From assembly GCF_006345805.1 (NCBI RefSeq), contig NC_043002.1, positions 98,642,001-98,706,000 of the forward strand: a DNA stretch of 64,000 bases. The letters run 5' to 3'. Made by a program: the position numbers and the translations under genes. The notes under the pieces are model-generated. The model was not told the DNA's origin. It did no database searches and saw only the letters and a list, made by a program, of their open reading frames with translations. How positions within the stretch are numbered: the first letter of the stretch is position 1; every line of letters starts with the position of its first letter. Shown here one piece after another: positions 2,053 through 45,892 of the stretch. Origin of the DNA: Octopus sinensis. Lineage: Eukaryota.

Positions 2053-2127
2053 TGTCTTTATAACTTATCTAATACTTTTCAGTTGCAACTTTGCTAAGGT
2101 TCTTTGTTTTGGTTTCCAATTCTACAG

Positions 2128-2264
2128 TATGTGTCTTCAGGCCCGGGATCCCTATTGTGCATGGAATAAAATAAACAAGACTTGTGCAACACCACCGGTC
2201 AACCAGTTAGAGACTCTCTTTTGGCTTCAGGATATCACATCATGTCCTGTTCTGGAGACACCAG
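2128..2264 (+). CDS. SEMA5: Semaphorin-5-like internal exon, PSI domain
   Basis: tctacAG acceptor, GTaaac donor, 137 nt, phase 2 to 1. Reads MCLQARDPYCAWNKINKTCATPPVNQLETLFWLQDITSCPVLETP: the semaphorin PSI motif C..A.DPYC.W, plus the W.Q.I..CP segment that precedes TSP1-1 in Sema5. Confidence 0.93.
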
Positions 2265-5845: not shown

Positions 5846-6030
5846 AAGCTGAATCTTATTATTCTGAGTTGCACAATTAGCATTCTGTTGCCAAGCATTA
5901 AACTTGAAAGTGGTTGCAGTAGTGTCTTGGCTTCCATTAAATATATAAATAAGCTGTACATCATGTATTTTGTACTTTTTATCATGCCTCTTTCTTTTAA
6001 ACATATCTTCTTTCTCTTTCTCTTTTGTAG

Positions 6031-6198
6031 TTGATGGACAGTGGTCACCTTGGTCACAGTGGTTGCAATGTCGAATTGTAGGACCTGATCGTCTCGGTGA
6101 TGACTGCTGGTGTCGCACTCGTACTTGTGACAACCCAGCTCCCCGACTGGGTGGCAGAGATTGTGTTGGTGACACAGTTGAAGTGTCCAACTGTACCA
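6031..6198 (+). CDS. SEMA5: Semaphorin-5-like exon, TSP1 repeat 1
   Basis: Polypyrimidine tract + gtAG, donor GTAAGT, 168 nt, phase 1-1. Reads (V)DGQWSPWSQWLQCRIVGPDRLGDDCWCRTRTCDNPAPRLGGRDCVGDTVEVSNCT, matching the atypical first TSR of Sema5 (C.CRTR.CD.PAP..GG..C). Confidence 0.95.
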
Positions 6199-6200
6199 GT

Positions 6201-6235
<35 letters not shown>

Positions 6236-19864: not shown

Positions 19865-20038
19865 CACATGGTGGATGGACTCCATGGTCTGCTTGGACAT
19901 CCTGTTCTCAGACGTGTAATAGTGGTGTTAGATCTCGCACACGTACCTGTGGGAATCCGGCCCCACTGCATGGAGGACGTGATTGTGAGGGGTCCCCCAA
20001 GCAGGAGGAATACTGTCCTGGAAATCCACGTTGTCCTT
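19865..20038 (+). CDS. SEMA5: Semaphorin-5-like exon, TSP1 repeat 2
   Basis: ttcttgtAG acceptor, GTAAGT donor, 174 nt, phase 1-1. Reads (T)HGGWTPWSAWTSCSQTCNSGVRSRTRTCGNPAPLHGGRDCEGSPKQEEYCPGNPRCP. Confidence 0.95.
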
Positions 20039-22948: not shown

Positions 22949-23128
22949 ATAGCCCTATCAATGGCCAGTGGTCAATGTGGTCCTCATGGGCTGGATGCTC
23001 AGAGCGATGTTATGGAGGAGTTCAAACAAGACGCCGTAACTGTGACAACCCACCGCCAAAACACAAGGGCTTACCTTGTATTGGAAATGAACAGGAATGG
23101 CGTATGTGCAATAAACATAACTGTGATG
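22949..23128 (+). CDS. SEMA5: Semaphorin-5-like exon, TSP1 repeat 3
   Basis: ttacacAG acceptor, GTAAGT donor, 180 nt, phase 1-1. Reads (Y)SPINGQWSMWSSWAGCSERCYGGVQTRRRNCDNPPPKHKGLPCIGNEQEWRMCNKHNCD. Confidence 0.95.
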
Positions 23129-23895: not shown

Positions 23896-24078
23896 CCAAA
23901 GTAAAAGTGGTACCATGGAGCGACTGGGTGAAGACGAATACAACAAGAGGTGGATACTTTGAGCAGCGCTTCCGTTTTTCGTGCAGCGCACCAGTCCCGG
24001 ATCGTCACATGATCCGAGCAAAGCACATGAAAAGCCAAGTGCGTTTCTGCTTAAACAATGGAGTGTGTCACAACTCAG
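23896..24078 (+). CDS. SEMA5: Semaphorin-5-like exon, divergent TSP1 repeat 4
   Basis: ttacAG acceptor, GTGAG donor, 183 nt, phase 1-1. Reads (A)KVKVVPWSDWVKTNTTRGGYFEQRFRFSCSAPVPDRHMIRAKHMKSQVRFCLNNGVCHNS, matching the Sema5-specific PW..W...GG..EQRFR..C repeat. Confidence 0.93.
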
Positions 24079-24221
24079 GTGAGCTTCGCAATCCTGTCGA
24101 CATATACATGCCCGTAGATCGAGTCCTTCGCAAGTACTGTAAGTTCAAAAGGAAACTATTCCGTAAATACTGCAACTGCCGGACACTTGGAGTCTTTCTA
24201 GTGTGTCAGAAATGTTCATAG
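24079..24221 (+). CDS. Possible alternative terminal coding extension (read-through of the donor)
   Basis: The frame stays open for 47 codons (GELRNPVDIYMPVDRVLRKYCKFKRKLFRKYCNCRTLGVFLVCQKCS*). It is CpG-rich like the exon and unlike the flanking intron. Confidence 0.45.
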
Positions 24222-25058
24222 TAGAAGTAGTAGTGGTACACCTAGCGGTATAAGTGGAGGAAATATAAATACAGACACATAACATGCAAACAACAACAAA
24301 CAAACAAACAAAAAGAAAATAAGTAACAAACAAATATATATTAATGTGATTGTGAATAACTAAGAAATTTTACATGTATACACCCACCCACATACATGCA
24401 TACACACCATGCACACACATGCAAGTCCTCCTATACACTCACCAAGGCGTATACATTGCATTACATGTGTAAAGTGTATGGCTTGGTTTGTTATATAAAT
24501 ATAATTATATATACCCATGTATATATTTCTAAGATATAATATGTCTATAAGTAACATATATATATAACATATTTATATATGTATATGTACATACACTTGT
24601 ATTATCCATATATTCATATGTGTGTGTGGATATTTTGTATTATCCATATATTCATATGTGTGTGTGGATATTTTGAATTGAAGGAAAGAGAGATATTGTA
24701 CTGCATGTAATTTTTTGTGTTTGCATTTTCTTCCCCACCATATACAATTTTCCCCCTTGACCCACTGGCTCTCCAGTTTTATTACATACTTGTTTGTTCA
24801 CCTTTCACCACCAACACCAACACCACCACCACCACCATCGATTTTTACTATGGTTTTTAATATTTACTTCTCCTGTCAATCCTTGAAACCACCTTGACCA
24901 TTTCCATCATCACTATCACCACCACCACCATGACCACCACTGTATTTGTCTCATTGCTACAACCACAACCACCAACACTGTCACCTCTTATAAATATCAA
25001 AATCAAAGTTAGCTACTTTGTGGGTCTTCCATCACTGCTTTAACAAGCATGGGAGACA

Positions 25059-25102
25059 ACTCTGGACATGTTTCTCTTTTGTTATAGGCTCATCAGCAAA
25101 GT
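25059..25102 (-). ncRNA. Minimal type-I hammerhead ribozyme motif with decayed helix II
   Basis: Reverse complement actttg-CTGATGA-gcctataacaaaaga-GAAAC-AT-GTC-cagagt; 6-bp helix I; palindromic ACATGT helix III. Confidence 0.5.
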
Positions 25103-25805
25103 GTAGCCAATACTGTATTTACGAAAACAATGAAAACAATATTGTTTTATTTTCTCACTGTATAACTATTTCTGGTTAACATATTTAGTGTTCTGTACAT
25201 TAGATATATTAACACACTATTTTAACTGCTGTTATTTTTCATATGGAGGCATACCTGAATTATTTATTCTCTAGACAATTATAGATGCCTTTGACATGTA
25301 TCTCTACTCTTGCAACCCCAATACCTAATGTAGACATGATAATTAAATGAAAAAAAGAATAATGTAAAGGACAAAAATAAATCTAAGGATGATCAAATTT
25401 GTTTGAAAATGAAGAAAGTTGAAAAGGGGCAAACAGTTGCATGATGGGAAGAAGTAGTGAGTAAATAAAGTATAGATGTAAACAGTAAATTCTGGTTGAA
25501 TGTTTGGTAGATAGAATGATAGTCACGCTGATAGTTTTTTTTTTTTTTTTGTAAACTGCATGAAGTGCATATATAATAATTTATTGTTGCAATTATACTT
25601 TCTATTTTCATTATTATTCTTGTCATTATTGCCATCCATTATTTTCATTAACACCACTATCATCAATATCATTATCATTATCTGGATTGGCAGAAATAGT
25701 TGAGCACCAGACAAATTACTTTGCATTGGGGTTCATTTTCTTATCTTGACAAGCTCAATTTTTACCCTTCATCCATCTACAACCAATGAATTTAGTGCTG
25801 TTTAA

Positions 25806-26025
25806 CCCTTTAACATTCAGATTATTCTATCAAATGTAAAGCTTATGTATTCACACCATGTAAAATTAATCTTGCATCATTTCATGGCTTTGAGATTTCA
25901 AAGATGTGATTGTTTATTTTGAAAATGACACAATAAGGTAGTTATGAATGACCACATCTGACTAGTTTGAACATAAAATAGGTAGAATATTTTGGCCGGA
26001 TATGGCCGGTTTAAACACTAAAGGG
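25806..26025. mobile_element. piggyBac-type MITE
   Basis: TTAA|CCCTTTA...TAAAGGG|TTAA; related copy at about 45707-45892. Confidence 0.8.
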
Positions 26026-27479
26026 TTAAATACTGGAGTTAATTTTATTGGTTGTATCTTCTTCTAAAATTATAATCTTGTGTCCACATTGAAAATTATT
26101 ATTATTGAGAGAAGAAGCAACATTATTGTTCATCCTTTTAAAGCTGATAAAATAAAATACGAGCCACACATTGGGATCAATCTAATTACTATAATCTTCA
26201 TCTGAATTTGTGGCTGAATTTGTGCCCATTATAGAAATTAAAGTACCTGATATTTGATTTTAAGTGTTTTAATCATTATAGTAAATTACTGGGCAACCCT
26301 CTTTGCCTTGTTAAGTCTTGTTAAAAAGGCATCCTCATTACTTGTATCATTATAAGTATTTGTCAACATTATAATGTGCTATTACTGTTGTCATCATCAT
26401 TATTATCATTATTAATGATAATTTCATGCCATCTATTTCATACTTTGATATTATGTATGTATTGTATTTTGGTATGTTTATCACCACCACAACCAGTACC
26501 ACCATCATCAGCATCATTATGATGGTCCTCGTTTTCCTTGTTAGTCTACTTTTAGCATGTTCTTATATTGTGTATCTTTCTACAACATAGATTATTTATG
26601 TATATACTTACTGTTTGCTGACACAGACCAGTGTTCGTTTTCTACTGTTTCACTTTACATTTAAAGTACCTGCTTGGTTTAATTTTATTTAACTTTCAGG
26701 ATCTAATAAAAAATCTGCATTTAGCATATGGATTAGTTTTTCCTTTAACTACAACGACAACGACACTATTAATAGCTGTTTCCGATTTAGGTGCAAGGCC
26801 AGCAATTTTGAGGCAGGAGGTAGTTAGTCGATTATATAAGCCCCAGTTCTTGGCTGGCACTTCATTTTATCATTCTCAAAAGGATGAAAGACAAAGTTAA
26901 CTCTGACAGGATTTCAACTCAGAATGTAAAGAACCAGAACAGATATCACTAACTTAATAATAATAATAATAATAATAATAAAAATAAAAATAATAATAAT
27001 AATGATGATGATAATTCATTATTACTACAAGGGCAACAAATGAGGATACATAATAGGATAGAGTACATAAAGTGAAAGGGATAGGATTTACATTGAAATG
27101 AAATGAAATGAAAAATTGACTGTATGAAGGGTATAAAATCTGATAATGTCCCTGTGGAGAACCATCACTTAGGGCCATTCAAGGAAACCCAGAGATCCAG
27201 GATTACCTTGACTATTAAGGGTAAGTGTGCTCTCCAATCTGTACTCCCTGGCATACAGATGCATGCTGAGTGTAGGTTGAGTACAGCTACAACCATAATA
27301 ATAATATTAATAATATTAATAATAATGGTAATGATATTAATAATTATTCCTAATATAGGTACAAAGCCAACAATCTGGGGGAAAGGGTCAGTTGGTTAAC
27401 TGACCTTGTGTTACTTCACTGACACCTTACTTTTAAGTATTGGAGTTGAGTTAATTGACTTACCCAGAAATTTTCTTTC

Positions 27480-27517
<38 letters not shown>

Positions 27518-28739
27518 GAAGATGATGTAAAATTATTGTTGTGGTAATTGCTGTGGTGTGCCGATTGTATGACTTAGTTCCGATTTTCATTTAGAACTAT
27601 TTTGTGTTGTTGGTGCTTTTTAGGGAAGCATGAAAGTCAAAACTTATCATTTTAACCTTTCCCATGAATATATAAGGCTTGTGAAATTTATATGTAAAAA
27701 AAACAAAAAAGAACAAAACAAAACAAACAAATGAAACAAAACGATTTACTTTTACTAATATTATTAATAATAATAATAATAATAATAATCCTTATAATAA
27801 TGATATAATGATGCTGATCTTGTGGAATCAGAAAGTATCTGATAAAATCCTTTGGTATATTTAGGTGCACCTCTTTATGCTCTGATTTGAAATCCTACCA
27901 AAATCAACTATTCCTCTCATCCTTCTTGAGGTTGATAAAATAAAATACAAGTAGTGTACTGAGTTTGGAATCCTGCCATCCAGTTTAATGCCACCACCTG
28001 ATGTTTGGATACCTTAAGCAGAATCCACTGTTACAAGCTTTGGACCCTGTCCCTGGTGTTAAGGAAATCCTATAAGCTGTGATTTGTTTTTCTTCTTTTC
28101 TCTCCCAGTAGTCTTGGAGGCTGTGAAAAATGTCATGAGTGCTCTCCTGGTGGCATATTGCTTAAGAGTTTGTCTGATGATTAGGATTAGAGGGTTGTGT
28201 GTTCAGTTTATGGACTGGGTATCATGTTGTGTCCTTGAGCAAAACATTTCATTTCATGTAGCTTCAGTGTAATCATCTGAGAATGAGTTACAGCTGAATG
28301 AATGTTGGCACAACCCTCTCACCTTTCATCTGTCATGTCCTGGGTATTCCCCTGGACCAAGAATTGAGGTACTGAGAAGGTGTCCTTGTCTGCTTGTGAG
28401 TACAAAAGCAACTGTGGTGCATGCTGTCTAGTCATGCATGCTCAAAAAAGACAGCTGGCTGTACTTGTAATTCTTGTCTTTTACAAGGATGACTTCATGC
28501 ACATAGTCAAACCAGTCTACTTACAGCAGATTTGTAGTTCAACCACACACACACACACACACACACAACTTGTGAAAATTGTTAAAATCTCATCCTTAAT
28601 CATTATTTGCTGCTGCTAATGCAATTCTGTTAGGATGAGTCATTAAATTTAAGAGAGACTCTCTTGAATATGTTTTCCTTTTTAATTGCTGCTATTATAA
28701 TTTTGATCATCATCATCATCATCATTATTATAATCATCA

Positions 28740-29119
28740 GTGGAGGCGCAATGGCCCAGGGGTTAGGGCAGCGGACTCGCGGTCATAGGATCGCGGTTTC
28801 GATTCCCAGACCGGGCGTTGTGAGTGTTTATTGAGCGAAAACACCTAAAGCTCCACGAGGCTCCGGCAGGGGATGGTGGTGATCCCTGCTGTACTCTTTC
28901 ACCACAACTTTCTCTCACTCTTCCTGTTTCTGTTGTACCTGTATTTCAAGGGGCCGGCCTTGTCACTCTCTGTGTCACGCTGAATATCCCCAAGAACTAC
29001 GTTAAGGGTACACGTGTCTGTGGAGTGCTCAGCCACTTACACGTTAATTTCACAAGCAGGCTGTTCTGTTGATTCGGATCAACCGGAACCCTCGTCGTCG
29101 TAACCGACGGAGTGCTTCC
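28740..29119 (+). mobile_element. SINE family C, tail type 1
   Basis: Near-identical to the 19310 copy; TSD tattataatcatca. Confidence 0.85.
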
Positions 29120-29847
29120 CATATTATAATCATCATCTTGTTATAGATGTCATTGCCATCAACATCTCTATCATCACCTTTACCATTGTGGTCATCATGT
29201 TTATCAAATAGTTGTCATGGATGTGCTTGTAGTGGTAGCACTAATAATTCAAGGATTTGAAATGGATTATCTTCATTATGAGTTTTGTATTAATTGTTAT
29301 TGAGATTAAAACCATTCTTACTATGTCAGGAAATTAACTCGACTATGCCAGTCCATATAAAAATATAAATCCATTATATCTATGTTACAGTTAGTCATTA
29401 TTGAAAGGAGTAATAAAATAATAAGTTTATTGTTGACCCTTTTGGAATTGATTAATTAAAATACCAGCCAAATACTGACATCACATACATGTCCCTCCAA
29501 AATTTCAATCTTTGTTGTTGTTGTTGTTGTTATTATTATTTCTCTGTCTTTACGTTCTGAGTTCAAATTCTGCTGAAGTCGACTTTGCTTTCATCGTTTT
29601 AGAGTTGATGTAAAAGTACCAGTTGAGCACTGGAGTTGATATAATCAAATAGTGCCCACCCCCATCCCCAATTCAGGCCTTGTGCCTATAGCATAAAAGA
29701 TTATTATTATTATTATTATTATTATTTGATGAAAACTCTCAGTTTATTTTGTTGGGTACGGTAGAAAGTGTAAGCTGTCTACAGCCAACAGACTAAGGTA
29801 ACACTTGTTTACTGGTCATGCTTCAAGAATCTTGAGAATTATTGCTA

Positions 29848-29908
<61 letters not shown>

Positions 29909-30847
29909 GCTGGTGAGCTGGCTACATAGTTAGCATGTTGGAAAAAATGCTCTACTTATACTTCTTCCAGCTCTTTACATTCTGAGTTCAAATCCTGGGA
30001 AGGTTAACTTTACCTTTCATCCCTCAAAGGTTGATAGCATAAGTACCAGTCAAGTGCTGGGGTCACTGTAATCAACTCTCCCCCCCCACCTCTCAAAATT
30101 GCTGGCCTTGTTTAAAAAACTAGAAAAAATTATTATCTGTCATCATGATCACTATGTGAATCACCATTATTATTACTACTTCCTCACTCTAAAATAGAGG
30201 CTAGTAGTATAGATATTTCTAATAAGCACATCTTAATAACTGTTATTGCTGCCTTCTGATAAAATTGGATTTATACCATGAGAATAATGAAGCAATTTAG
30301 TCAGTTCTCAAAGTGATAAATACCTGGCCTCCTTTAAAATATCAATGAAATTTGTCTTTAGTCTCACTTAAAACTTTTTATTAAGCAGAAGACAAAAGTG
30401 CTTTACATCCATGTAATTCTTCTTTGTTTGCTACAATGAGGACAAATTTAACCTCAGAAATGGTTTTAAGCTTGAAAAGTTTTAAGTCATCTTAGTTTTA
30501 TTAAACAGGCATAAGTGTGGTTGTGTGGTAAAAAGTTTGCTTCCCAACCACATGGTTTTGAGTTCAGTCTCACTGTGTGGCACCTGGGGCAAGTATCTTC
30601 TACTATAGCCCTGGATCAACCAAATCCTTGTGAGTAGATTTGGTTGACAGAAATAGAAAGAAGCCTGTTGCATTTATAACCCATGCCAGCATGGAAGGCA
30701 GACATTAAACAATGATGATGATATGTATACATCTAAATGTGTGTGTTTGTGTTTCTCCTGCACCACCACTAGACAACTGGTGTTTGTTTGTTGACATCCT
30801 TCTAAATTAATGTTTCAGAAAAAAAGAAATCGATAGAATAAGTACCA

Positions 30848-31078
30848 GGCGGCGAGCTGGCAGAAACGTTAGCGCACCGTGCGAAATGCTTAGCGGTATT
30901 TCGTCTGTCGTTACATTGTGAGTTCAAATTCCGCCGAGGTCGACTTTGCTTTTCATCCTCTCGGGGTCGATAAATAAAGTACCAGTTTCGCACTGGGGTC
31001 GATGTAATCGACTTAATCCCTTTGTCTATCCTTGTTTGTCCCCTCTATACTTAGCCCCTTGTGGGTAGTAAAGAAATA
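30848..31078 (+). mobile_element. SINE family B nested in an older family-A-like copy
   Basis: TSD gatagaataagtaccagg on both sides; host remnant about 30507-31197. Confidence 0.85.
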
Positions 31079-31635
31079 GATAGAATAAGTACCAGGCTCA
31101 GAAAAAAGAAAAAACAAAGCCTAGGGGCAATTTTTTCAACTAAACCCTTCGAGGTAGTGCCCTAGCATGGCCACAGTCCAGTGACTGAAACTAGTAAAGT
31201 ATAATAGAGAAAAAAATGGCAATTTGTGTATGCCATTTGCAAAATGCTACAGCCACCCTCACCCTCACCCTCATCTCCTATGAGAAACAATGTACATAGT
31301 TATTACTGACTAACCCTACCCATACATAGATCATTATGAATAGCATGGCTTGATTACTCTGTATACGTAATGGGTTAAATTGTATTGGTTACTGTGTATT
31401 ATTGTGTAACTATCTTGTGAATCCGGATGTAGCTCTATTGCAACAAGTCTTAGTTATTTAATGTGGAAGCTATGATAGGAAAAAAGACTGGAATAGTTAC
31501 TGTTAGTTACATTTGACAACTAGTTAATTACTCAGTGAACTTTACTTTTAAAGCAGTATATTCTTTCATAAGACATTGCCATTGGACTTCAACAATATAA
31601 CATAACTATAGATAGGTCTCTTAATTATATGACAT

Positions 31636-31853
31636 ACTCTTTTTACTCTTTTACTTGTTTCAGTCATTTTGACTGCGGCCATGCTGGAGCACCGCCTTTA
31701 GTCGAGCAAATCGACCCCCGGGACTTATTCTTTGTAAGCCCAGTGCTTATTCTATCGGTCTTCTCTTTTGCCGAACCGCTAAGTGACGGGGACGTAAACA
31801 CACCAGCATCGGTTGTCAAGCAATGCTAGGGGGACAAACACACACACACATAT

Positions 31854-31886
<33 letters not shown>

Positions 31887-32056
31887 CATATATACGACAG
31901 GCTTCTTTCAGTTTCTGTCTACCAAATCCACTCACAAGGTATTGGTCGGCCCGGGGCTATAGCAGAAGACACTTGCCCAAGATGCCACGCAGTGGGACTG
32001 AACCCGGAACCATGTGGTTGGTTAGCAAGCTACTTACCACACAGCCACTCCTGCGC
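31636..32056 (-). mobile_element. SINE family A
   Basis: Full-length reverse copy. Confidence 0.85.
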
Positions 32057-32321
32057 CTATCATTTTTATAAAATATTGTATTGATTGAATAGAGAATCAC
32101 TGTCTGTTATAAGTCTGTTTATTGTAGCACTAGGATGGTTTAAGAAACTTATTTAACATATCTGTTTAGTTTAGTATATTCTTGTTAATAATGATGGTGA
32201 TTATAGTAATAGTAGTGATCGTAATTGTAACAAAAATGGTAATGGTATGAGCGATATAGTGGTTAGGAAGGTGATGGTGGTGGTGGTGGTGGTATTCTGT
32301 TTGTGGTGGTTATGAGAACAC

Positions 32322-32352
<31 letters not shown>

Positions 32353-32974
32353 TAATAATAATAATAATAATAATAGAAGTGGTGGTTTTGGAGGTGTCAG
32401 TAGTTATTCATTGCTTTTGTTGTTGGTGTTATTGTTGGTGTGGCATATATTTGTAAGTATCAACATGGTGGGTGTTGGGGGTTGAATATGAATCATAAAA
32501 AACAATATGGAAATCATGAATTATCTGTAACTGGTTAGCATCATGTACTGCAAGGCTTATAATTGTGTAGTATGGAAGGAAGCAATGGATATGTGTGTAT
32601 GTTCATTAGTTTGTTTAAGTCATCATGGCTAAGGTCATGTTGGACTAGCTCTCTCAGTGTATGTGTGTGTATGTATATTTGTCTACAGACACTATTATGT
32701 ATGAGAGATACATTTTTAAGGTTCAAGAATTAATCTCAGACTCTGACCTTCATTCACTCTCACCTATTCACAAGCAAAGATCTTGAAAGATCTTCTTCAA
32801 ACGACAAGAGAAATAACACATTTCACGAGGAATCTCAACCGAATATGAGGGCCACTGGTTTCATTAACAGGTTCAGTTAAGTAAAAGATTCATAATGCTG
32901 GAAATTGGTGTTGGTGGTGTTGGTGTTGGTGTCGATGTTGGTTGTGAAGGGGAAGATGCCAGTTATTATTTCTA

Positions 32975-33067
32975 GTTAAGGGTTCGTGCTTGCTGAGAAC
33001 TGACCAATGGAGTGGCTCTATTTTATATACTTCTGTTCAGTTTGCAGGCAACATTATCACTCTGAAC
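32975..33067 (+). ncRNA. Candidate pre-miRNA hairpin H1
   Basis: Hand fold: tgcttgc/gcaggca, gaactga/tcagttt, ggagtg/tacttc, 13-nt loop, basal stem gtt-agggt/actct-aac; CATC (CNNC) at 33067. Confidence 0.5.
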
Positions 33068-33599
33068 ATCATATGTTTGTTTGTTTGTTTGTTTATATCT
33101 ATGTCTGCATGTGTGTGTGTATGTGTGTATATATGCATATATGTATAATATAATGTAATTAGTGTATTGGTCCACCTAAATGTAATAATAGCTATTAATG
33201 TACAAAAATGTGAAAAAAAATTTAACATATCTATATAAATATTTATATATACATGTATAGATATATTCTCCACACACACACACACAAATACATATGAACA
33301 TATACATGCTTTCTTGCTGCATATATTATAAAAGTCATGAACAAATTATATATATATATGTATACATACACATGCATATATAAACACAAATATTCATCCT
33401 ATTGGATTCATTCATACGATGCATATTCATATATTGACACGGACAAAAATCTCGATGCGTCAATGTTAGAAATATACCTGAATTATAGAATATTGATAAT
33501 GCATAGATATTTGAACTGTTAAAAACACATATGTACATTTACTCATACACACATATATTTATATTTATGTGCTTTTACACAAACACACACATATACTTA

Positions 33600-34470
33600 G
33601 AGATATTCTGATATACATATGTACACCTTATATATATACATATATATATCTATATATGAATATATACATATATATATCCATAAGTATATTTGTATGTATG
33701 TATATATATCCATATGTATATTTGTATGTATGTATATATATCCATATGTATATTTGTATGTATGTATATATATCCATAAGTATATTTGTATGTATGTATA
33801 TAAATCCATAAGTATATTTGTATGTATATATATATATAGATATATATGTATATATATTTATATATCTATATATATACATATATATGTATATATATATATA
33901 CATATATATGTATATATATATGCATACAAATATGCTTATGGATATATATACATACATATAAATATACTTATGGATATATATACATACATACAAATATACT
34001 TATGGATATATATATATGTATATATTCATATATAGATATATATATGTATATATACATTAATATATATATATGTATATATGTATGTGTATACATATGTATG
34101 TATATGTATATATACATTAATATATATGTATATATGTATGTGTATACATATGTATGTATATGTATATATTCATATATAGATATATATATGTATATATACA
34201 TTCATATATATATGTATATATGTATGTGTATATATATGTATGTATATGTATCTATTCATATATAGATATATATATGTATATATACATTCATATATTTATA
34301 TGTATATATGTATGTGTATATATGTATGTATATGTATGTATATGTATATATTTTTATTTATATATACATATATATACACACATATATATTTATATGTATG
34401 CACACTCACATGTGTGTATATATACATGTATATATAAATATATATATATGTGTATATAAATATATATATA

Positions 34471-34514
<44 letters not shown>

Positions 34515-34530
34515 CACACATACATATACA
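33600..34530. repeat. TA/TATG field containing a 32-bp minisatellite in both orientations
   Basis: tccata(a/t)gtatatttgtatgtatgtatatata x5 (33677-33830), then 3 reverse-complement copies (33921-34010). Confidence 0.8.
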
Positions 34531-35036
34531 CAAATATTTATATAATAAGGATGTACCACTTACAAATGACTCTATAAATTAACTATGATATTATATAGAT
34601 CATCCCTATCGACTTTCTAGTTTTGTTCTATGCTCCTTGCTGTAAACTAAAAACAGCAACAAAATCATGTCATGTACAATTAAAATATATAACAACAGCA
34701 ACAACAACAAAAACAACTGTAAGAATGAGAATGACAAAAATGAACAAATAAATGAATGCAAGAAAGAACAATGAAAAAAATTATCCAAGACAGACTTGGT
34801 TTGGATTGAACCTCCTTGACTTGCAAAAGTATTTTGGAAAATATCCACTCACTTTTGCATCATACCACAAAATTCTACAAGAATTTACATGGAATTTACA
34901 TGGCTTATAGACTTTCCTATTGGATTTACTAAAAAAAAAAAAGAAAAAAAGAAATATTCTACAGACAATAATTGCAAACAGAAATGGAAATTATCGATCA
35001 ATACTCTTCTGTATTTATTATTATTATCATCATCAA

Positions 35037-35084
<48 letters not shown>

Positions 35085-35120
35085 GGTGATCATGAATTTG
35101 TGTTATTCTTGAGTAATAAA

Positions 35121-35193
35121 AATTATGTACAGTCAGTCCTAAGGATGGAAGAATTTCTTTATCCAATTTTAGTTCTTGGAGATGGTCATAATT
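35121..35193 (+). ncRNA. Weak candidate pre-miRNA hairpin H2
   Basis: aattatg/cataatt, tcc-aagga/ttcttgga, tggaa/tttta; 73 nt. Confidence 0.25.
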
Positions 35194-35277
35194 CTGTTTT
35201 TTGTTTTGCTCTCAATTACGCAATGACAACAGAACAGTTTTCAAATATTTCTTTTTGTAATTTTTTTTCCATTCTGG

Positions 35278-35346
35278 ATGCTGCCTGAGCTTATTTAGCA
35301 ATCAGGCTCAGCACATTACTGGTTGGTTCTATACTTAGGTATTGTT
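35278..35346 (+). ncRNA. Weak candidate pre-miRNA hairpin H3
   Basis: gatg-tgcctgag/cttaggta-tgtt, caatcag/ctggttg, 13-nt loop; an alternative shorter fold competes. Confidence 0.3.
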
Positions 35347-36330
35347 ACTCTTGATAACTGTCTTTACTTTTAATAACCAATGGGTCATTGTGATTTCTAG
35401 TGAATACCTTTGCTGATAAAACAACAATAAGCTTGTATGTAATTTCAACTTCTTATCAGAATCTCCTGTTGTTAAAAAAATGGAAAACATAAACAAAAAA
35501 AAAACAAGAAAAAAAAACCGAAATACTAAAACATGTATGGGACAAAAAATGATGCTAAAGTGGAGAGGAAAAATGAATCACAAAAACAAAACGAGAAAAA
35601 AACATGAGTAATAATAATGATAATTAATAATGATAATTATAAGAGAAATAATGAGAAGACATTCAAGAAATTTTGGGATTTCAAATGAACAAATGTTTGT
35701 GAATTTTTTTTGGTATTTTTTTTACCTTGTCTTTTTTTTGTCTCCTATTTTTATTGAAAATTTACAGAGAGTATTCGACATACACGCATAAATGAACACA
35801 ACACATATCCCAATAATATAATAATACAGCCAAAATACTCTCTAAGCTTTTAAAAGACAATTATAATATATCTTGAGAGGTAATATATCATGAAAGACTG
35901 GATAAAAAAAAATGCATTATACAGTTTTACTTAATGTATAAATTATAATTATGATTATTAATTTTATTATTATTATTAATATGATTTTTATTCTAAAAAC
36001 TGCTGCCTTGTTTTGAATCCAAGACTGCTGTTTTGTATATTGTTTTCCTTAATTTGTTTTGTTTTGTTGCATTTTCATTTTTTTTTTTAATGGTAATTCT
36101 TCTCTAGATAAATTGCAATAAACATAAAATTCATTACTTGGTGTTGTGATGGATAAACAACTAAAATCTTAGAAAAAAGAAAAAAAATTGAAATGAAGGA
36201 AAAGTGTGTGTATGTGACAATATGACCACAGGACTGAAAATCTGAAAATGTGAAATCTGTAAAACAATCTTAGTAGTAGTATGAATTAAGTTTAGGAACC
36301 CTGGTGGAAGGATACACTTGCTTCTAATAT

Positions 36331-36365
<35 letters not shown>

Positions 36366-36418
36366 ACATAATATATATGTATATACAGGTACATATATAT
36401 ATATATATATACACACAC

Positions 36419-36546
36419 ATATTTTTATTAATATTTAGCAGAAACAACAGAGTGACTCAGAGGCCAAGGGTTTCGTGTGTTGGCACGCAAGAAAATCTTA
36501 GACCTTCAGTCACTATGTTGCTTCGGTTAAATATAAATAAAAATAT
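36419..36546 (+). ncRNA. Long imperfect hairpin H4 (candidate pre-miRNA or dsRNA element)
   Basis: About 53 bp paired over 128 nt by hand fold; core agtgact/agtcact, gagg/cctt, aagg-tttc/gaaa-tctt; UGUG at the apex. Confidence 0.55.
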
Positions 36547-36783
36547 ACACTTACTCATATTTTGAGTTATATTTTTCCTGTTTGTACCAACATACCTACA
36601 TATATATTTATATATATGTACTTGTGTGTGTATGCACATACATATTTATGTATATATATATATATATAATATATATATATATATACACGTGTGTGTGTGT
36701 GTGTGTTTGTATATATGTACACTCAAACTATGTATCTAACAGCAAAAGAAGTAGGCCCCAATAACATGTAGAAAGTGAGTATT

Positions 36784-36842
<59 letters not shown>

Positions 36843-36892
36843 TCTGGTTGAACATGGGACCGTATCATTTCATAGATGTTTCTGGATTGACA

Positions 36893-36967
36893 CTGATATG
36901 AATTGTAATGAAAAGTACTCAATACTCTTAAACTAAGTAGAAGAATTTCTGTTCAAGTTCATATCAG
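36893..36967 (+). ncRNA. Candidate hairpin H5
   Basis: 12 contiguous pairs ctgatatgaatt/agttcatatcag plus about 8 more; directly abuts H6. Confidence 0.35.
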
Positions 36968-37046
36968 CATGAGTGGCTACTCAGAGTCTCTTGTTTGCAT
37001 TTCTTTGACAATGAATGGGAGCAAGAACTTTGGGTAGTGACTTATG
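36968..37046 (+). ncRNA. Strong candidate pre-miRNA hairpin H6
   Basis: About 32-bp stem with two G-G mismatches and one C bulge, 10-nt loop, and 7-8 G·U wobbles that pair only on the + strand. Confidence 0.65.
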
Positions 37047-38376
37047 TAGATTCAATTTTGAAAGGGCATCCTTCCCATAAATATGTGAGTACATAGATAT
37101 ACACACAAACATATGCACAGTCTTTGATTAACATCATTTATAATACTGTTCAAAGAAAGCGTTATTAAGGATGATATGGAAAAGCTGATATACTTACATC
37201 CTAAAATAAATATGCATATATACAAAATATGTATACATACTATATGTGTATGTGTATGTATACTAGAATAAAATGATATGGAATGAAAGCACTGTACATC
37301 ACACTGCTGTGTATATTTAAGCAAAGCAGATTAATATTCTACCACTGGATTTATTACTTATTTTTCCATGATGCATGAAGAAAGGTATTATTAACTACAG
37401 ATCACCAAAAAAGCAATCACTGTATTTCTGAAAACAAGTGTATCATTGGTTTTAGAATTTCTGTTCAATGTTTAAATTGTTTACCAAAATGACATCAGTG
37501 AAAGCTACCCCCCCCCCAACCACCACGCAGACATACATTTTCTCTGTGTGTCTCACACACACTCTCACATTGAGCTTCTAGATAGTTTTATCTATTTCAT
37601 TGTACTTGCTAAGTATTTTTTAATTTGAGGGTTTTGTAAAGACACTGGCTCAAATTCTCTGTGGTGGGATTGAACCCAGAGCTAAGTGGTTGTGGAGTAA
37701 ACTTCTTAACCAAGTCATGCATGCATCTGCAACTTAATTTGTTCATCATGCAGTTATAGTCTATAGAAATAGTTTGGACAAATATTTTTTTTTAAAAATA
37801 GAATTAATCAAGGACTTGTAAATGAGTATGTGCTAGTATATACGTAATTCTATGTGTGTGCCCTAAGGATTGTTTAAAAAGATGGTTAAAGAATTGGTCT
37901 ACCAGATCTAGGATGAAGAATTTGTGTTAACTGTTAATGTTTCATTGTGTTACAGAGCAAACACACTTTTAAATCTTTTAGCATTTTTTGATAAGTTAAT
38001 GAAAGGAGGGTGAAGAGCCATGGTCATTATCTATGCAGACCCTTCCAGTTTTATTAGATTGATATGGCTGATGTCCAGTCTCAGTGTCTGCAGCTCAGTC
38101 CCCCTCCCCAAAAACAGAAACAAACAAAAGTGTTGGGAGGAAAGCAGTGATAGGAAAGGGCATGTTTCAAGTACTTGTAAGAGCATGAAGTCCTCTAAAG
38201 ACACTGCTCAACTTGCTTAACTCTAGTGAAGAAATAACAGATTTTTTGGTTGGTGGGGGAATATTAACTAATACACTGATGTCCTATCTTTCATGTTTGC
38301 CTGACATATTCCTTTTTGCTTTGAAAATATTTAATTGGATGAGAAAATTCATTATTGTAAAATATCAATGTATCTG

Positions 38377-38830
38377 CTTCACAGTTGAGTTGCTAGACAG
38401 TGAAATAAGATACTAGTAATGCACACATAGGTTCACAGATGTGTGGCTAGGCAAAGAGGTTCATAACAATGTGCACATGGCTTCACAGTTGAGTGGCTAG
38501 ACATAGGGACAGGAGTCTAGTGGTGTGTACAGGTTCACAGCAGAGTAACTAGGCATAGCAACAGGACTCTAGCAGTGTATATATAACTTCACAGTTGAGC
38601 TGGTTAGACATAGTAATGGGATTCTAGTAGTGTGTACATAGTTTCACAGCTGACTGATTAGGCATAGGGAGATATAGACAGTGTATCCACCCGTTCACAA
38701 TTGAATAACTGGCGAAGAGGGTACTAGTAGTGTATAATAATTTCACAGTTGAGTAGCTATACATAACAACAAGATCTAACTGTATATGCATATATAAGTG
38801 TGGCTTCACAGTTGAATGGCTAGACATAGA
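38377..38830. repeat. Degenerate ~52-bp tandem repeat, 9 units
   Basis: ttcaca(g) recurs at 38378, 38432, 38482, 38534, 38588, 38643, 38694, 38742 and 38805. Confidence 0.85.
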
Positions 38831-41167
38831 AAGAGAAAACATTTTCAAAACTACTTATTCTCACATGTCATATCAAAATATACAATTTTTTAACAATTAA
38901 CTTCCATGCTTCAATAGATGAATTGAAGCAAAACATATAAGGCAACATCTGGAATCAGAAGAAACTTGTGTTAGTCAGTGATGGCTATAATTACTCTGTA
39001 GGGAAATTCATTGAAGAGTTTGTTAATTTGAATTACTTTGGGAAATAAAAGTTCTACATAGCATCATTTGTAGTTTTTTAAGGAAGTGAATTAAAATGTG
39101 ATGTAGATTCCTCTTTTCTCACAGTAAGTGAACTTACTGAAATCTTCATTCACTCTTCTGTATTAATATAAGCATGGTCATAACTGAACAGTTGAAACCA
39201 GTAAAAAATAATGAATGAACAGAAACAACATAGAGTATTAAGTCCTCTTTAGTTTTGTAGATTACAAGGTAACCCTTCTAGTGCTGGTGCCTTTATAAAA
39301 TTATAAATTTGTTTTTGGCCATTAAAATCTAATTGGCTTTCTTCTATTTGCTGCCACCCTGTTTCTGTTTGGTTAATTATTTTAAGGATTAGTTCATGGC
39401 ACATAAAATATTATTGGAGAAAGAGCATTAGTTGCTTAGAGGTGTGACATGTGAATAAGCCATCTCACTGGTTATCTTGGTTGTTTTTTTATTTTAATTC
39501 CTTGGTGAAATAATGGTGAAAACTATGCTCTCAAAAGCAAAGCATATTTAGAACTACCTTGATTTCATGTTTTCAGAATCAGAAATCTTGAATTATTTGA
39601 TTTTCTTTGAGATTGTGATTAAATTGTGGTTAGATGGAAATAACAGAGAAAATCAGAAAATGATGGAATGAGAACATTTGAAGATGAAATATATAAAAAA
39701 AAAAAAGACTCCAAAGAATTTCAAGTACAGTGAGAGAAAGAAAGGGAAGAAAATATGAAGGACTGAGAATGCAAAAAAAGGCAAAAGCCAAACAAAGCAA
39801 GAAATATTGCATTGTAAAAAAAAAAAAAATTATATATTGAAAACTAAGTTAATAGAAAATAAAATATGTACAAAACATGGACATGGAGTCATATGGTTTC
39901 TTAGTTGTGTTGGGTCTAAACTATAGCCGGTTTTAATTCATTTTTGTTTTGTTAATATCCAGAAAATGGTCTTAAATGACTTTATGGTTGTCTATTTGAT
40001 TTTTTATCATTATTATATTTTTTTAGTCAAAAGGAAAGGGCAGTGCCCATGACTGTTTACAGAGCTTTCAAGATTGATGGGAGGGTGGGAGGAAGTTATC
40101 TTCAAGCTGGAGATCTGACCAAATGCTTCCAAAATACATCCGAAATACCATGATAATGTGACTAGCACCTCTCAAATGTAAAAGAAATATTGAAATTATT
40201 TTCCTATTGATTCTTTAAGTGTTTAAAAATGTCCATGGAGTACTCTTATTTTGAATACACAAATATATGTTCCGAATATCCAAATACACATGTATGTGTG
40301 TGTGTGTGTGTTAATAAACATATAATTAGAAACAACCTCCTGTATTCAGTGAGTTTTGTAACATTTAATTATATTGTGTAACCAAATATTATTTAGATAG
40401 CTAATCCAAGTCCTTCTGGACTTGACTTAGCTTAACTATACCAGTGTTCACATAGTATGTATGAATGCAATGAAAAACATAGTTATTATATTTATTGTGA
40501 AGGCCATGGGAACTGTGCCTTCTCCAAGACAAAATTATCCAACCATCGTTTTCAATGGGAATTTTCTCAGAAAACACTTAGTACTTTGGCAGTATTATAT
40601 TATAGCATGTCTTGATATAAAATACAGCTGGTTTTCAATTTCTGAGATAACCTGGTGGTTGAAGTGTTTAGCTCATGATCATAAGGTTATGGGCTCAATT
40701 TCTAGTGTGCTTCTTTTTCACATCTGAGTATTTCAGAGGATATTGACTAATATTTCACTCATCCAACCCCCAACTCCCATTTAACCATACATATATATAA
40801 ACTTTGAATTTTTATCATTTTATTTGCATTCTGATTTCAAAATTTAAAACAAAAAACAGGATTAATCTTGTAAGTGCCACCATTATCTGAATTAACAAAT
40901 ATCTGTCTGTCTGTCTATTGTGTGTGTATGCATACATACATAAAGGAAGAGAAACAACAAAGGAATAAATGATTATCTTTTGAACTTCATTAGTGTGCAA
41001 CTGTTTCTGCTGAGATGCAGTGGACTCGGTTGAGTGTCTGAATGGCACCTTATAAAGTGCTTCATCAGAGCCTCGAATATGAAGTACAATTTATTTGGGA
41101 AAGAATTACATTTGTGTCTATACTGGGATTGGCACCAACACACACACACATATATATATATATATAT

Positions 41168-41480
41168 GTGGAGGCGCAATGGCCCAGTGGTTAGGGCAGC
41201 GGACTCGCGGTTGTAAGATCACGGTTTCGATTCCCAGACAGGGCCTTGTGAGTGTTTATTGAGCGAAAACACCTAAAGCTCCACGATGCTCCGGCAGGGG
41301 GTGGTGGTGATCCCTGCTGTACTCTCTTGCCACAACCTTCTCTCACTCTTTCTTCTGTTGGCCTGCCCACTTAGCCAGCGGGGTGGCGTCATTTGAAGGC
41401 TAAAACAATGTGAAGCGCATTGTGACCTGCGATGTGTAGCAACATCTGATAGCCTGGTCGGTCACGGTAATCACAGTGAT
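41168..41480 (+). mobile_element. SINE family C, tail type 2
   Basis: Family C head; tail shared with the 50511 and 61800 copies. Confidence 0.85.
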
Positions 41481-42476
41481 ATATATATATATATGTAAAT
41501 TGGATTTTGTAAAAAAATGCAAAAAATAAAGAAAACGAATGATAGCTATTATACATCTATACATGTTGTTATCAACAATCATGTACAAAAAACACATCTG
41601 TCTACTAATATTTACATATTATTTAAAGTAGTACATCTGTTCATCATATTGCAGCACAGTTGTGTTTGGGGCCTCTACTTTCTATGTTTTAAACTGAACT
41701 TCATAATGGCTATAGTAAATATTGCTTCTTAACTCTTGTATTAATGCTAATTAGTTTTAATGCAAGGGGTCAATTTTTAACATAATTTCTGTTCAGTTTG
41801 TTTTTTCACTTGATTTAGACAAAAATTTGGCATGCTGATTAAAACTAGTTTTCTTCTACCACTTCAAGTTTTTTCCTGCAGTTTGCTATCTGAATAAGGG
41901 CTGCTCAGCTGCTTTTATTATTTTATTGATAATAGGTATAAAACCATAACCATCACTAACAAGCAAGAATGAATTAATAGAAATTGATAGGAATCTATCA
42001 TGTTTTTAGGTGCCTATATTGTTGAGAACAGACATAAACATCTCTTCAGCCCTTCTTCCTGTTGATTCAGGAGAATGTGCATTAAAGATTTTGATTGCTG
42101 GAGGAAGAGAGAACTGTCCCAGCACTTGACTGGTACCCATTTTCAGCTGTGTAGGAATAAAGTGTCTTACTCAAGGAAGCGATGGAGCCATCCAATCTTG
42201 GAATCAAACCTATGACCTCATGATCATAATCCTAACCTTAACTACTGGGCCATATGCCATCCACATATACTAATTATACTAGTTATATATTAAACCTTCT
42301 AACTTTTAAAAAAACTGTTGTCTCCTTAACCCATCCATCTTCATTTCTCAACCTAACAATTACATAATATAATATGTACTAACCAACTGACCACCATAAT
42401 CAAGATACTTATGAAAGAATTTCTTTCACAGTGCCACTCTTTTCTGGTTACTAGTATTCTATTATTACTTACTTAA

Positions 42477-42696
42477 CCCTTTTGTTACTGTATTTATTTT
42501 GAGAGGCTCTGTGTTTCTTTCAATTACTTTAAATATCACAAAGAATTTAGTAAAATAACTTAGTTATCATTAAGCTAGTGTTAGGAACATAAATTGTGAC
42601 TAAGGTTTGGTGGAAGATTTTAATTCAAAACTTATGAAAACAAGACATTTGTATTCAGAGCCAGAGCCGGTTTCAGCCGGGTTGGTAACGAAAGGG
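42477..42696. mobile_element. piggyBac-type MITE (second family)
   Basis: TTAA|CCCTTTTGTTAC...GTAACGAAAGGG|TTAA. Confidence 0.85.
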
Positions 42697-43028
42697 TTAA
42701 GCCCTTCTTTCTTGATGGAGTAAAGGCCGTTAATGACTTTTCTCTACAGTTACTATCAGCTGTCTTTTCTGCTTCTTTCTGTCTAGATTCCTGCTTTTTA
42801 TTTTGCCGCACAGTATCATATGCTTTTCCCGAGAGAAGGCCTTCCTCTCTCCCAGATCTTGTTGTTTCTGCATTGTCATCAATGCTTCTGTAACTTTACT
42901 TCTCTTTTAGGTAGTGGTTGGTGGCTTTGTGCAAACCCCATTTTTACTTCTGGAAGAGGTAGTCCATTTTAGTTTGGCCACTATCTTTTGACTTGCCAAG
43001 AGCTTGCAATCCATTGGTATAGTTCTCA

Positions 43029-43259
43029 GGCGGCGAGCTGGCAGAAACGTTAGCACATCGGGCGAAACGCTTAGCAGTATTTCATCTGCTGTTACGTTCT
43101 GAGTTCAAATTCCGCCGAGGTCGACTTTGCCTTTTATCCTTTCAGGGTCAATTAAATAAGTACCAGTTACACACTGGGGTCGATATAATCGACTTAATCC
43201 GTTTGTCTGTCCTTGTTTGTCCTCTCTGTGTTTAGCCCCTTGTGGGCAGTAAAGAAATA
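43029..43259 (+). mobile_element. SINE family B
   Basis: TSD ggtatagttctca(gg). Confidence 0.85.
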
Positions 43260-43679
43260 GGTATAGTTCTCAGGATTATTGAGGCACACAAGCCACCAAG
43301 GACTGGACCTTATCATGGGATATTATTATGATTGCTGTATATTCTGTTGAACAACATGGAAAAAAACTGAAAAAAATCATCTAAGGATTTGCTAATTATA
43401 GAATTTAGATCTTCATGATAATCTGTTCTGTCAAATTAAAGATTCAAAGTTTTCGTTTTTTAATTCTTCAATAGCTTTTAGTCATTGGACTGTGGCTATT
43501 CTGAGGAACTGTCTTTAAGGGTTTTAGTCTAGCATATCAGTCCTAGTAACTTACATAGTACATATTTCACTTTGAAAGATGTAAAGTGTAGCATGTCATA
43601 AAGGGAGATAATTTGCTGAATTTAAGTGCTGCTACATATTTCTATTCAAATATACTGGTTATTTACTTGACAAAGATCT

Positions 43680-43735
<56 letters not shown>

Positions 43736-43766
43736 GCACTCATACTATTCATCTGCGAGTCTCTTT

Positions 43767-44467
43767 GGATCTTTTCCTTTTGAACGGCAGACAATTTCTA
43801 GTTAACTAAACACTTTAAAACTTCGTATACTGGTAGAATGTGTCAAAATAAAACATTTTTTTCTCTTGGCTTTCTTGAGAAAATTGTAATTTGTTTGTTT
43901 AACGTAGTTTAATTTTTCGAATTTTAACCAATCCTATGCGCTCTTTTGAGCTAAAATCATTTGCTGCGTCTAAAACTGAGACAACATCCTGTAACTAACC
44001 CTAACTCTAAATTTGTTTTTCTTAATTGTTAAATTAATTTAACTGTTACGCGTGTAAAAAAAACTAAAGCAATGGAAAATAATTTAAACAATTAACAAAC
44101 AAAATAATTCTATAATTTTATACATACGCTTTCCGTTTATTTTACACGTGTAACAGTTAAATTAATTTAACAATTAAGAAAAAAAAAATTTATGGTTAGG
44201 GTTAGGGGGAGGTTTAGGGTTGGTTACAGGATGTTGTCTCAGTTTTAGACGCAGCAAATGATTTTAGTTCAATGGAGGTAATTGATTGGTTAAAATTGCC
44301 GAAATGCTCGAATTTTCAGACGAAATGTCTTACAAACTATAGAATTTTCTCAATAAAACCAAGAGAAAATGATGTTTTATAAACACATTCTACCAGTATA
44401 CGAAGTTTAAAACTTTTTAGTTACCTAGAAATTATGTTACAAACTGCCGTTCAAAAGGAAAAGATCC
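43767..44467. mobile_element. Foldback DNA transposon/MITE with long TIRs and 8-bp TSD (Merlin- or hAT-like)
   Basis: Perfect 24-bp termini ggatcttttccttttgaacggcag / ctgccgttcaaaaggaaaagatcc, TSD gtctcttt, inverted arms about 300 bp. Confidence 0.9.
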
Positions 44468-45361
44468 GTCTCTTTTATTGAGATCCTTTTGTGCACTACT
44501 TTTATAACTGTACATGTTGGACAACACATTACAAGCTTTCTTACATTATATGTATTTCATATGCTACTATTGAGATGTTTTCTTTACTGGCAAAAATCAC
44601 TTTGAGCATGAGTTACTGTAAGTCACTTACCTTATGCACAAGAGAATCTATGTCGCTCAACATGCAAGAAATGCCAGCACGATCTCTACAGAACACTTGT
44701 ATTTTGTACAGCCAAATTTTTTTCTGTGATTGTTATAATATAAGAATATAGCTCTTTATGGAAGCTCTACATGAGCCAATGAGAATGTCATTATGTGCTC
44801 ATTCAACCGGCTAGAAATAGCAGCTAAATTACCCTAATTTCACATGTTACCATATTTGGAAAAGAAAAATAACATTGATTTGTGTAGTCCTTGATGCATT
44901 GTCTGAAGAAAAAAAGACATGTGGTTACTGATGAAAGGCTCTGATCATAAGTCTGTTTATCTGAAGATCTACTTTCACAATATCGCAGAAACAATCTTCA
45001 CAGAACATCCTGCATTACCAAATTCTGTTAATAATAACTGTCATATTAACCTCTACACTAACTTTTTAGACACCCTTATAACTTTAATCCTTTTTGAGTA
45101 GTTGTCAGTTAGTCATAGGCTAAAGCAAACAGAATTCCCATTTTCAAAGGCATTCCAAGTAGTTCAGGTCTAACTATGTGGTGAAGAAATTTGCTTTGCA
45201 ACCACATGGTCCAGTCCCATTGTGCAACACTTTGAACTAGCGTCTTCTACTATAGCCCCAGGCTGATCAAAGTATTGTGACTAGATTATTTGACAAAATG
45301 TGAAAGAAAACCATACATACATATATATATATACACATGCATGCATGTATATATATATATA

Positions 45362-45550
45362 TCATCATCATCTTCGTTTAGCGTCCGCTTTCCATGCTAG
45401 CATGGGTTGGACGGTTCAACTGGGGTCTGTGAAGCCAGAAGGCTGCATCAGGCCCAGTCTGATCTGGCAGTGTTTCTACGGCTGGATGCCCTTCCTAACG
45501 CCAACCACTCTGTGAGTGTAGTGGGTGCTTTTTACGTGCCACCCGCACAG
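45362..45550 (-). mobile_element. Retroelement family D 3' part
   Basis: (CAT)n tail plus body. Confidence 0.75.
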
Positions 45551-45706
45551 ACGTGCCACACACACATATTCATATATCTATGTATAAATGTGTGTGTGTT
45601 TATGTGTGTTTTAACTCTTTCTCTTAACATTGCCTGCTAATCATTAATGAAGGGTCCCTGTCTTTAAGTGTCATTTGGTCTTCTATAACATGTCTGGCCA
45701 TCAATG

Positions 45707-45892
45707 CCCTTTAGCATTTAGCTTATTCAGTCAAATGTTAATGCTTATCTGCTCACATTCTTTTGGATCAATCTACCATTATTTCATTGCTTCAAGATGT
45801 CAATGATGTGATTGTTTATTTTGAGAATGATAATGTAGCATAGAGAGGGAAAATATTTAGGTTGGATATGACCAGTTTAAATTGCTAAAGGG
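45707..45892. mobile_element. piggyBac-type MITE (degenerate relative of the 25806 element)
   Basis: ccctttagca...tgctaaaggg|ttaa and a similar interior. Confidence 0.65.

Follow-up and report, generated by a model that had tools for sequence, protein, structure and literature searches.

The window analysed here, a stretch of 64,000 nucleotides (64 kb) from Octopus sinensis, holds the middle of the octopus semaphorin-5 (Sema5) gene, and its exons match a semaphorin-5A protein of the same species (P0011) at 96.6-100%. We mapped the following features:

2105..2263, + strand: Sema5 exon, PSI domain (approximate tblastn bounds; P0001 residues 497-549)
6030..6203, + strand: Sema5 exon, TSR1 (approximate bounds; P0011 residues 550-607, 96.6%)
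19867..20037, + strand: Sema5 exon, TSR2 (approximate bounds; 100% match)
22949..23128, + strand: Sema5 exon, TSR3 (protein match and RNA joint to 23896)
23896..24078, + strand: TSR4 exon, common to both isoforms (PF23260, E 5e-23; 8ckg, E 6.5e-12)
24076..24084, + strand: probable dual-use phase-1 splice donor CAG/GTGAGC (gene models; same CAG/GTGAG in contig L022)
24079..24221, + strand: read-through coding tail of 47 residues, TAG at 24219-24221 (frame, RNA contigs, conservation, structure prediction)
24222..24632, + strand: short-isoform 3' UTR (shares a contig with spliced exons)
25376..25381, + strand: candidate poly(A) signal AATAAA (sequence)
24079..64000, + strand: 5' part of the transmembrane-isoform intron, 50,642 nt in full (exon mapping)

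The TSR4 exon starts at 23896, after the AG at 23894-95, and is separated from the TSR3 exon by a GT..AG intron of 767 nt (23129-23895). No further Sema5 exon lies downstream of it within the window, in line with the preliminary description of this DNA, which had noted about 40 kb without the next exon. The next exon of the long form (L003:721-885, window-equivalent start 74721) is of phase 1, and the transmembrane exon is on a separate downstream piece (L004). The read-through stretch is single-copy in the genome assembly (G000), with no second copy of the tail.

Past the donor at 24079 the frame stays open for 47 codons, the first of them GGT spanning 24078-24080, and the TAG at 24219-24221 is followed by TAG, AAG, TAG, TAG and one more TAG. 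This is the read-through frame with further in-frame stops that had been described. Splicing at 24078 would yield Ser-Asp, while read-through yields Ser-Gly-Glu, with the donor itself read as Gly-Glu. The tail peptide carries all the features claimed for it (RKYC twice, a KRK cluster and five Cys), with 12 K/R against 3 D/E. The claim of seven CpG in about 105 nt of a CpG-poor intron also stands, with seven at 24087-24180 against four in 24222-25400. By themselves, frame length and CpG are weak clues, within chance: 9.2% of 20,000 random downstream positions open at least 47 codons, and 3.5% of 105-nt windows carry at least 7 CpG. The tail rises above chance because it is conserved and present in spliced RNA. 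At 24109, runs of one organism (organism B) carry C for T, so that a Met of the tail becomes Thr, the residue of the family consensus. More in-frame GT sites are found within the tail (GTAAGT at 24139-24144, GTAAAT at 24163), with no sign of use.

The stretch is contained in 20 of 24 listed sequencing runs, none of which is recorded as RNA, their RNA status resting on the spliced joint. We examined four runs (from four studies and two organisms), picked because the stretch is present. In all four, one contig joins 23128 to 23896 and runs unbroken through 24079 to 24282; three runs extend it further, to 24553 (X1), 24632 (X10) and 24545 (X6), and in X10 it forms a single 3001-nt contig with 2080 nt upstream. 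The contigs break off at a 38-nt tandem repeat in the UTR. Since such a contig skips the 767-nt intron yet passes 24079, it represents spliced RNA ignoring the donor. The proposed coding read-through is therefore carried by spliced RNA, which in four of four runs passes a 5' splice site and reaches an in-frame stop, as in a composite terminal exon. Among the contig branches listed for the four runs, none is at 24078. The contigs reveal neither transcript ends nor levels, and the depths of the X10 contigs (14.1 on the tail versus 3.3 on the downstream exon) are unusable for ranking isoforms.

The downstream long-arm exon is on a contig in two of the four runs (X10 and X18), both spliced onward; the X10 contig enters this exon from intron sequence and the X18 contig begins inside it. 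X1 and X22 have no contig on the exon, which proves nothing on its use. The octopus junction from 24078 to 74721 was not seen in the RNA contigs of the four runs. The long arm is transcribed and spliced, and the evidence for its join to TSR4 comes from gene models (P0011, P0020 and P0021) and from agreement across species. The X10 contig (L003:702-885), with intron sequence before the first long-arm exon and splicing after it, could be partly processed RNA or a separate start within the long intron.

Regarding the 3' end, several poly(A)-type signals are found (AATAAA at 25376, 25464, 26151 and later; ATTAAA at 25342). The AATAAA at 25376 singled out previously is present, but a poly(A) site there is unsupported: a contig of X1 running from 25096 to 25525 passes over two of the signals (25376 and 25464) and ends 144 nt beyond the 25376..25381 signal, and an X2 contig covers 26001-26900, past the proposed signal. 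The short isoform's 3' UTR also contains a stable hairpin at 24426-24500 on the + strand (z -4.8, picked after a scan); spliced contigs from three runs span it, and none of the differences listed for them falls within it. Contigs that cannot prove a 3' end, partly unspliced RNA at the locus, and a length and CpG content within chance would also fit unproductive intron retention or pre-mRNA, with a frame due to chance or to an RNA-level element. The lack of a listed branch at 24078 already speaks against this, and the comparison with other molluscs more so.

A protein search with TSR4 plus tail gave 18 matches, 16 of them covering 93-99% of the query, and a profile search gave 37 proteins. With the tail alone, phmmer against 1.84 billion representatives returned 7 matches, all Sema5-type tails. 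A metagenome scan gave one locus among at least 595 pattern matches. From 147 proteins collected, 136 have the TSR4 motif, and the tail was found in 90 of these 136 (many being near-identical Logan copies). Three unrelated cluster members (P0053, P0036 and P0039) were set aside. Proteins of at least 740 aa terminate within 8 residues of the tail motif in 50 of 93 cases. Models ending in the tail come from 19 named mollusc species: 2 cephalopods (Octopus bimaculoides and O. vulgaris), 15 gastropods (Batillaria, Pomacea, Babylonia, Littorina, Nucella, two Patella, Lottia, Candidula, Bradybaena, Bulinus, Lymnaea, Aplysia as a fragment, and two Elysia), and 2 bivalves (Sinanodonta and Potamilus). 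Logan proteins add an oyster cluster and a squid/cuttlefish-type cluster (831 aa; representative on 112 contigs). The tail is absent from 31 chelicerate-type rows, and the retrieved set contained no annelid, brachiopod or deuterostome protein, which does not by itself exclude a range outside molluscs.

We compared 27 hand-picked representatives using the octopus as reference. Mean identity to octopus is 0.66 for the tail, 0.75 for the tail core and 0.49 for TSR4. Cys21, Cys34, Leu37, Gly38, Phe40 and Cys43 are invariant in 27 of 27, and the most invariant part of the tail is its last 16-20 residues. All have a C-terminal polybasic segment, with 8-15 K/R versus 2-4 D/E. In genomic DNA of a distant mollusc-type sequence (L022), TSR4 and tail are contiguous and CAG/GTGAG is at the same place; the octopus and L022 tails are identical at 23 of 33 residues, 12 of these via different codons, which argues for selection on the peptide. 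The tail is under strong constraint, and the stretch is a conserved coding end of Sema5 across cephalopods, gastropods and bivalves. Transcripts thus do not all splice at 24078, and the frame is kept in three mollusc classes. Residue-level conservation with synonymous change in these classes, together with the many long proteins ending at the tail motif, argues against unproductive retention, a reading already largely refuted and in our view extremely improbable.

The same comparison bears on the GTAAGT at 24139. It is a perfect donor motif, in frame and phase with 24079, and 5 of the 7 CpG fall in the 60 nt before it, which could be an exon extension adding 20 residues to the transmembrane form. 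However, conservation peaks downstream of 24139, L022 has no GT there, the three octopod long models all splice at 24078, and no such joint or branch is listed. We rejected this second donor on these grounds and see hardly any chance for the extension.

Sema5 is duplicated in Babylonia (P0004/P0009), Nucella (P0006/P0007) and Candidula (P0014/P0065), with the tail kept in both copies. Some records (P0047 and P0054, also P0060, P0064 and P0097-type) extend beyond the usual ...CGYG end and show Trp where the stop would be, probably a TGA called as Trp. Two gastropod-type records from different clades have a similar peptide of ~22 residues beyond the stop, a hint of conserved UGA read-through; this peptide is absent in L022, and the octopus has several TAG stops there.

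Models of 831 aa ending in the tail were found in O. bimaculoides (XP_014767871.1, RefSeq semaphorin-5A isoform X2) and O. vulgaris (CAI9723923.1), with tails one residue apart (Met/Thr) from that of the window. Long and short models part at one residue, S-D versus S-G in octopus, and the same parting point is seen in Littorina and Batillaria (A-D versus A-G) and in Haliotis and Crassostrea (P-D versus P-G). The octopus long model, at 1020 aa, is shorter than those of snails and oyster (1087-1155 aa). The O. sinensis entry is a long form, as are the named oyster and abalone entries among those listed (40 of 181 oyster-cluster members). In four models (P0010 from Gigantopelta, P0115 from Haliotis rubra, P0016 from Acanthosepion, and P0021) the tail is joined to the long arm or the protein ends in sequence derived from repeats; these are probably annotation artefacts caused by the coding-like read-through.

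In hydropathy profiles, 3 of 3 long forms show a hydrophobic peak near the C-terminus, and 0 of the 9 tail proteins checked do: the sole hydrophobic segment of the short forms is N-terminal, whereas in the long forms this peak is a second one. The N-terminal peak of the octopus protein (1.61) is the weakest of those checked, the signal peptide being judged from hydropathy only. Pfam domains on the tail-bearing P0022 are PF01403 (Sema), PF01437 (PSI), and PF00090 and PF23260 (TSRs, including the atypical TSR4). The short product is a Sema-PSI-4xTSR protein of ~831 aa without a transmembrane helix. The soluble isoform put forward in the preliminary description is thus confirmed in its read-through RNA, its conserved frame and its lack of a transmembrane helix, while its secretion is a prediction.

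A quick tree on 37 hand-picked rows groups the octopus protein with mollusc and chelicerate Sema5. Heterobranchs form a clade of 8 rows in it (SH-aLRT 100), of which 5 have K as junction residue, 2 have N and 1 has S, and in two limpets the residue is K (Patella) and R (Lottia); the proteins noted for their junction residue are P0012, P0013, P0014, P0015, P0041, P0042, P0061, P0065, P0070, P0071 and P0144. Because the donor needs a codon N-G-T, K or N at the junction means that there is no phase-1 GT donor. No long or transmembrane form from heterobranchs or limpets was found among the retrieved proteins, the searches having favoured tails. These results suggest that heterobranchs and limpets may have lost the donor and hold secreted-only genes, other donors or paralogues being possible.

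TSR4 matches the structure of human Sema5A TSR3-4 (8ckg, E 6.5e-12), which passages of PMC10978931 describe as a disulfide-linked, domain-swapped dimer with a GAG site. Its three TSR4 cysteines are retained in octopus, and the residues K734/R747/R749 of the human GAG site correspond to S/H/K by ungapped counting. The tail itself has no Pfam family, no PDB sequence match and no match outside molluscs among the proteins retrieved, and comparison with known small Cys-rich folds (defensin, PLAC, ShKT, hairpin peptides) gave no Pfam profile for it. Its predicted structure, of moderate confidence (mean pLDDT 74, pTM 0.35), has a helix at residues 11-29, shorter in a first model, and a beta-hairpin at 31-45 with pLDDT about 90. 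Four Cys are in the hairpin and one in the helix, so the hairpin would probably be closed by two disulfides with one Cys free. A two-copy prediction of the tail gave no verdict (score 0.00, the alignment not being used). Fold searches gave at best E 7.5 (Foldseek) and Z 2.9 with rmsd 5.6 over 41 aligned residues (VIA), which says nothing on the novelty of the fold, and ESM Atlas returned only TSP1 clusters (0.87-0.90) for TSR4 plus tail of P0022.

The confident hairpin in the most invariant part of the tail allows another reading, in which the tail is a pro-peptide: a convertase would cut at the basic cluster, freeing a two-disulfide hairpin peptide of ~22-24 residues and releasing the semaphorin part. 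This peptide would be C-terminally amidated in non-cephalopods and have its own signalling or antimicrobial role. The pattern [RK]-X-[RK]-R is found in 23 of 27 tails (strict R-X-[RK]-R in 13 of 27), and 25 of 27, all except the two cephalopods, have a C-terminal Gly, which is an amidation signal. The hairpin presumably resembles hairpin peptides such as tachyplesin. However, in the octopus the site reads K-F-K-R and the C-terminus is Cys-Ser, lacking the Gly, and the site is mostly followed by K/R, a residue that furin disfavours. Binding of glycosaminoglycans explains the basic clusters equally well, and there is no fold match. Furin sites are also described for the Sema3A tail in passages of PMC8465649, which favours processing. 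On balance we regard the pro-peptide as unlikely.

The reading we prefer, and hold to be highly probable, is that the stretch is the composite terminal exon end of Sema5, giving a likely secreted, matrix-binding isoform when the 24079 donor is skipped and the RNA is cut in the 50-kb intron. Which isoform is made would depend on whether U1 engages the donor before polyadenylation takes place in the intron. Where the donor is skipped and the RNA cut inside the intron, the short protein would be secreted. It could dimerise through TSR4 and signal through plexin, with the basic tail helix holding it on heparan/chondroitin sulfate, and the outcome would be a short-range gradient cue replacing a contact cue.

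Another possibility is that the short form is a decoy, binding plexin or glycosaminoglycans and blocking the transmembrane form. The sFlt1-type decoys arise by the same generating mechanism, a soluble receptor isoform made by intronic polyadenylation reportedly acting as a decoy in the case of sFlt1, and the shared TSR4 might allow a heterodimer with the long form. Nevertheless, a decoy would not need a tail more conserved than TSR4, and heterobranchs and limpets yielded tail forms only. In addition, passages of PMC2696441 report that the shed Sema5B ectodomain is active, not inhibitory. We consider a decoy quite unlikely.

It had also been proposed that the short isoform, by terminating upstream of a hairpin cluster, couples isoform choice to miRNA output. 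The geometry would permit it, but this coupling is unsupported. Rfam gave no matches at gathering score; at E<=1, 81 matches were found in 24222-44000, all below gathering, consisting of AT/GT simple repeats to mir-297/466/3149-type models and two SCARNA7. A hairpin scan found 25 hairpins versus 9 and 6 in two shuffles, many of them in repeats, and one of the five intronic candidates folded stands out (z -7.3, chosen after the scan), so no cluster is shown. This one, at 36970-37043 on the + strand, is a single-copy pre-miRNA-like hairpin (-35.3 kcal/mol) with no Rfam family. The inverted-repeat search was swamped by an AT-rich array at 33629-34544. Two tandem arrays (53422-53640 and 56620-57140) are built of palindromic or GC-rich units; one of them forms long hairpins when folded, and the other gives long repetitive open frames.

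As far as sequences can tell, molluscs probably produce a secreted version of a nerve-guidance protein that is usually counted among the membrane-bound ones. The variant is real, conserved and apparently undescribed, in a known family and made by a known RNA mechanism. That mechanism is ordinary, and databases already list the 831-aa protein in automatic models, the same in XP_014767871.1 and CAI9723923.1, with annotations silent on secretion and on the tail. The short form is readily assembled from octopus, squid-type and oyster transcriptomes, and its tail is a small conserved domain without a family. Invertebrate secreted semaphorins are catalogued as class 2. In the literature searched, with subscription journals mostly outside its scope, we found neither the tail nor a secreted, gene-encoded Sema5 of molluscs described. 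Passages of PMC9699675 and PMC8050914 do not address a secreted Sema5, and the tail motif is absent from the text covered of four supplement files of PMC6374515, where the mollusc protein files are apparently empty. A soluble Sema5 would change the reading of sema5 expression in mollusc brains, from a contact cue to a diffusible or matrix-bound one; passages of 10.1101/2022.06.11.495763 place sema5 expression in octopaminergic neurons of the octopus optic lobe.

Taking these elements together, molluscs may have invented their own secreted semaphorin class from Sema5 through an ancestral switch at a dual-coding donor, with an unnamed helix-hairpin domain from which a basic-site protease would free an amidated disulfide-hairpin peptide. 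Heterobranchs and limpets would have lost the donor, leaving the gene secreted-only, and some gastropods would add a conserved extension by UGA read-through. As a whole, this joint reading is speculative and we are doubtful of it.

Class 5 semaphorins are treated as transmembrane in the parts of two surveys that deal with them (PMC6374515; PMC6040699). The octopus gene shares the Sema-PSI-TSR architecture of Sema5A/5B and Drosophila Sema5c, and its long isoform is transmembrane; the mollusc short isoform, in contrast, stops after TSR4 and ends in a tail of 47-52 residues. It departs from the class definition in having neither the transmembrane helix nor the cytoplasmic tail, although the gene itself belongs to class 5. 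The shed Sema5B ectodomain, as passages of PMC2696441 present it, is likewise soluble, bears the Sema domain and can act at a distance, as proposed here, but it results from proteolysis, whereas the mollusc form is encoded in the gene, arises through RNA processing and acquires a tail of its own.

A secreted semaphorin with a basic end would be a convergence on the Sema3 design. Class 3 proteins have an Ig domain where the mollusc form has TSRs, and no Ig family was found on P0022 at E<=1. A C-terminal Arg end for neuropilin is a Sema3 feature that the mollusc tail lacks. Neuropilins are described as vertebrate-only in passages of PMC6374515. Likeness to the Sema3A tail, in what passages of PMC8465649 report of it, consists of a basic end of ~47 residues, BBXB-type clusters, possible convertase sites and a spare Cys; that tail binds GAGs and is intrinsically disordered, while the mollusc tail, with five Cys, is predicted to be ordered. 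The tail could not be aligned to Sema3 in sequence, Pfam or PDB comparison. The basic end had been called Sema3-like, and this does not hold in sequence or in predicted order: because there is no sequence match and predicted order stands against disorder, the likeness to the Sema3 tail is one of analogy at best, not of homology.

The closest parallel in mechanism is with secreted IgM and sFlt1, where a donor competes with intronic polyadenylation and a composite exon results. There, as here, a 5' splice site is skipped, an in-frame read-through tail is added and the transmembrane exon is lost. The mollusc case differs in concerning a guidance ligand, with both tail and donor kept in three mollusc classes.
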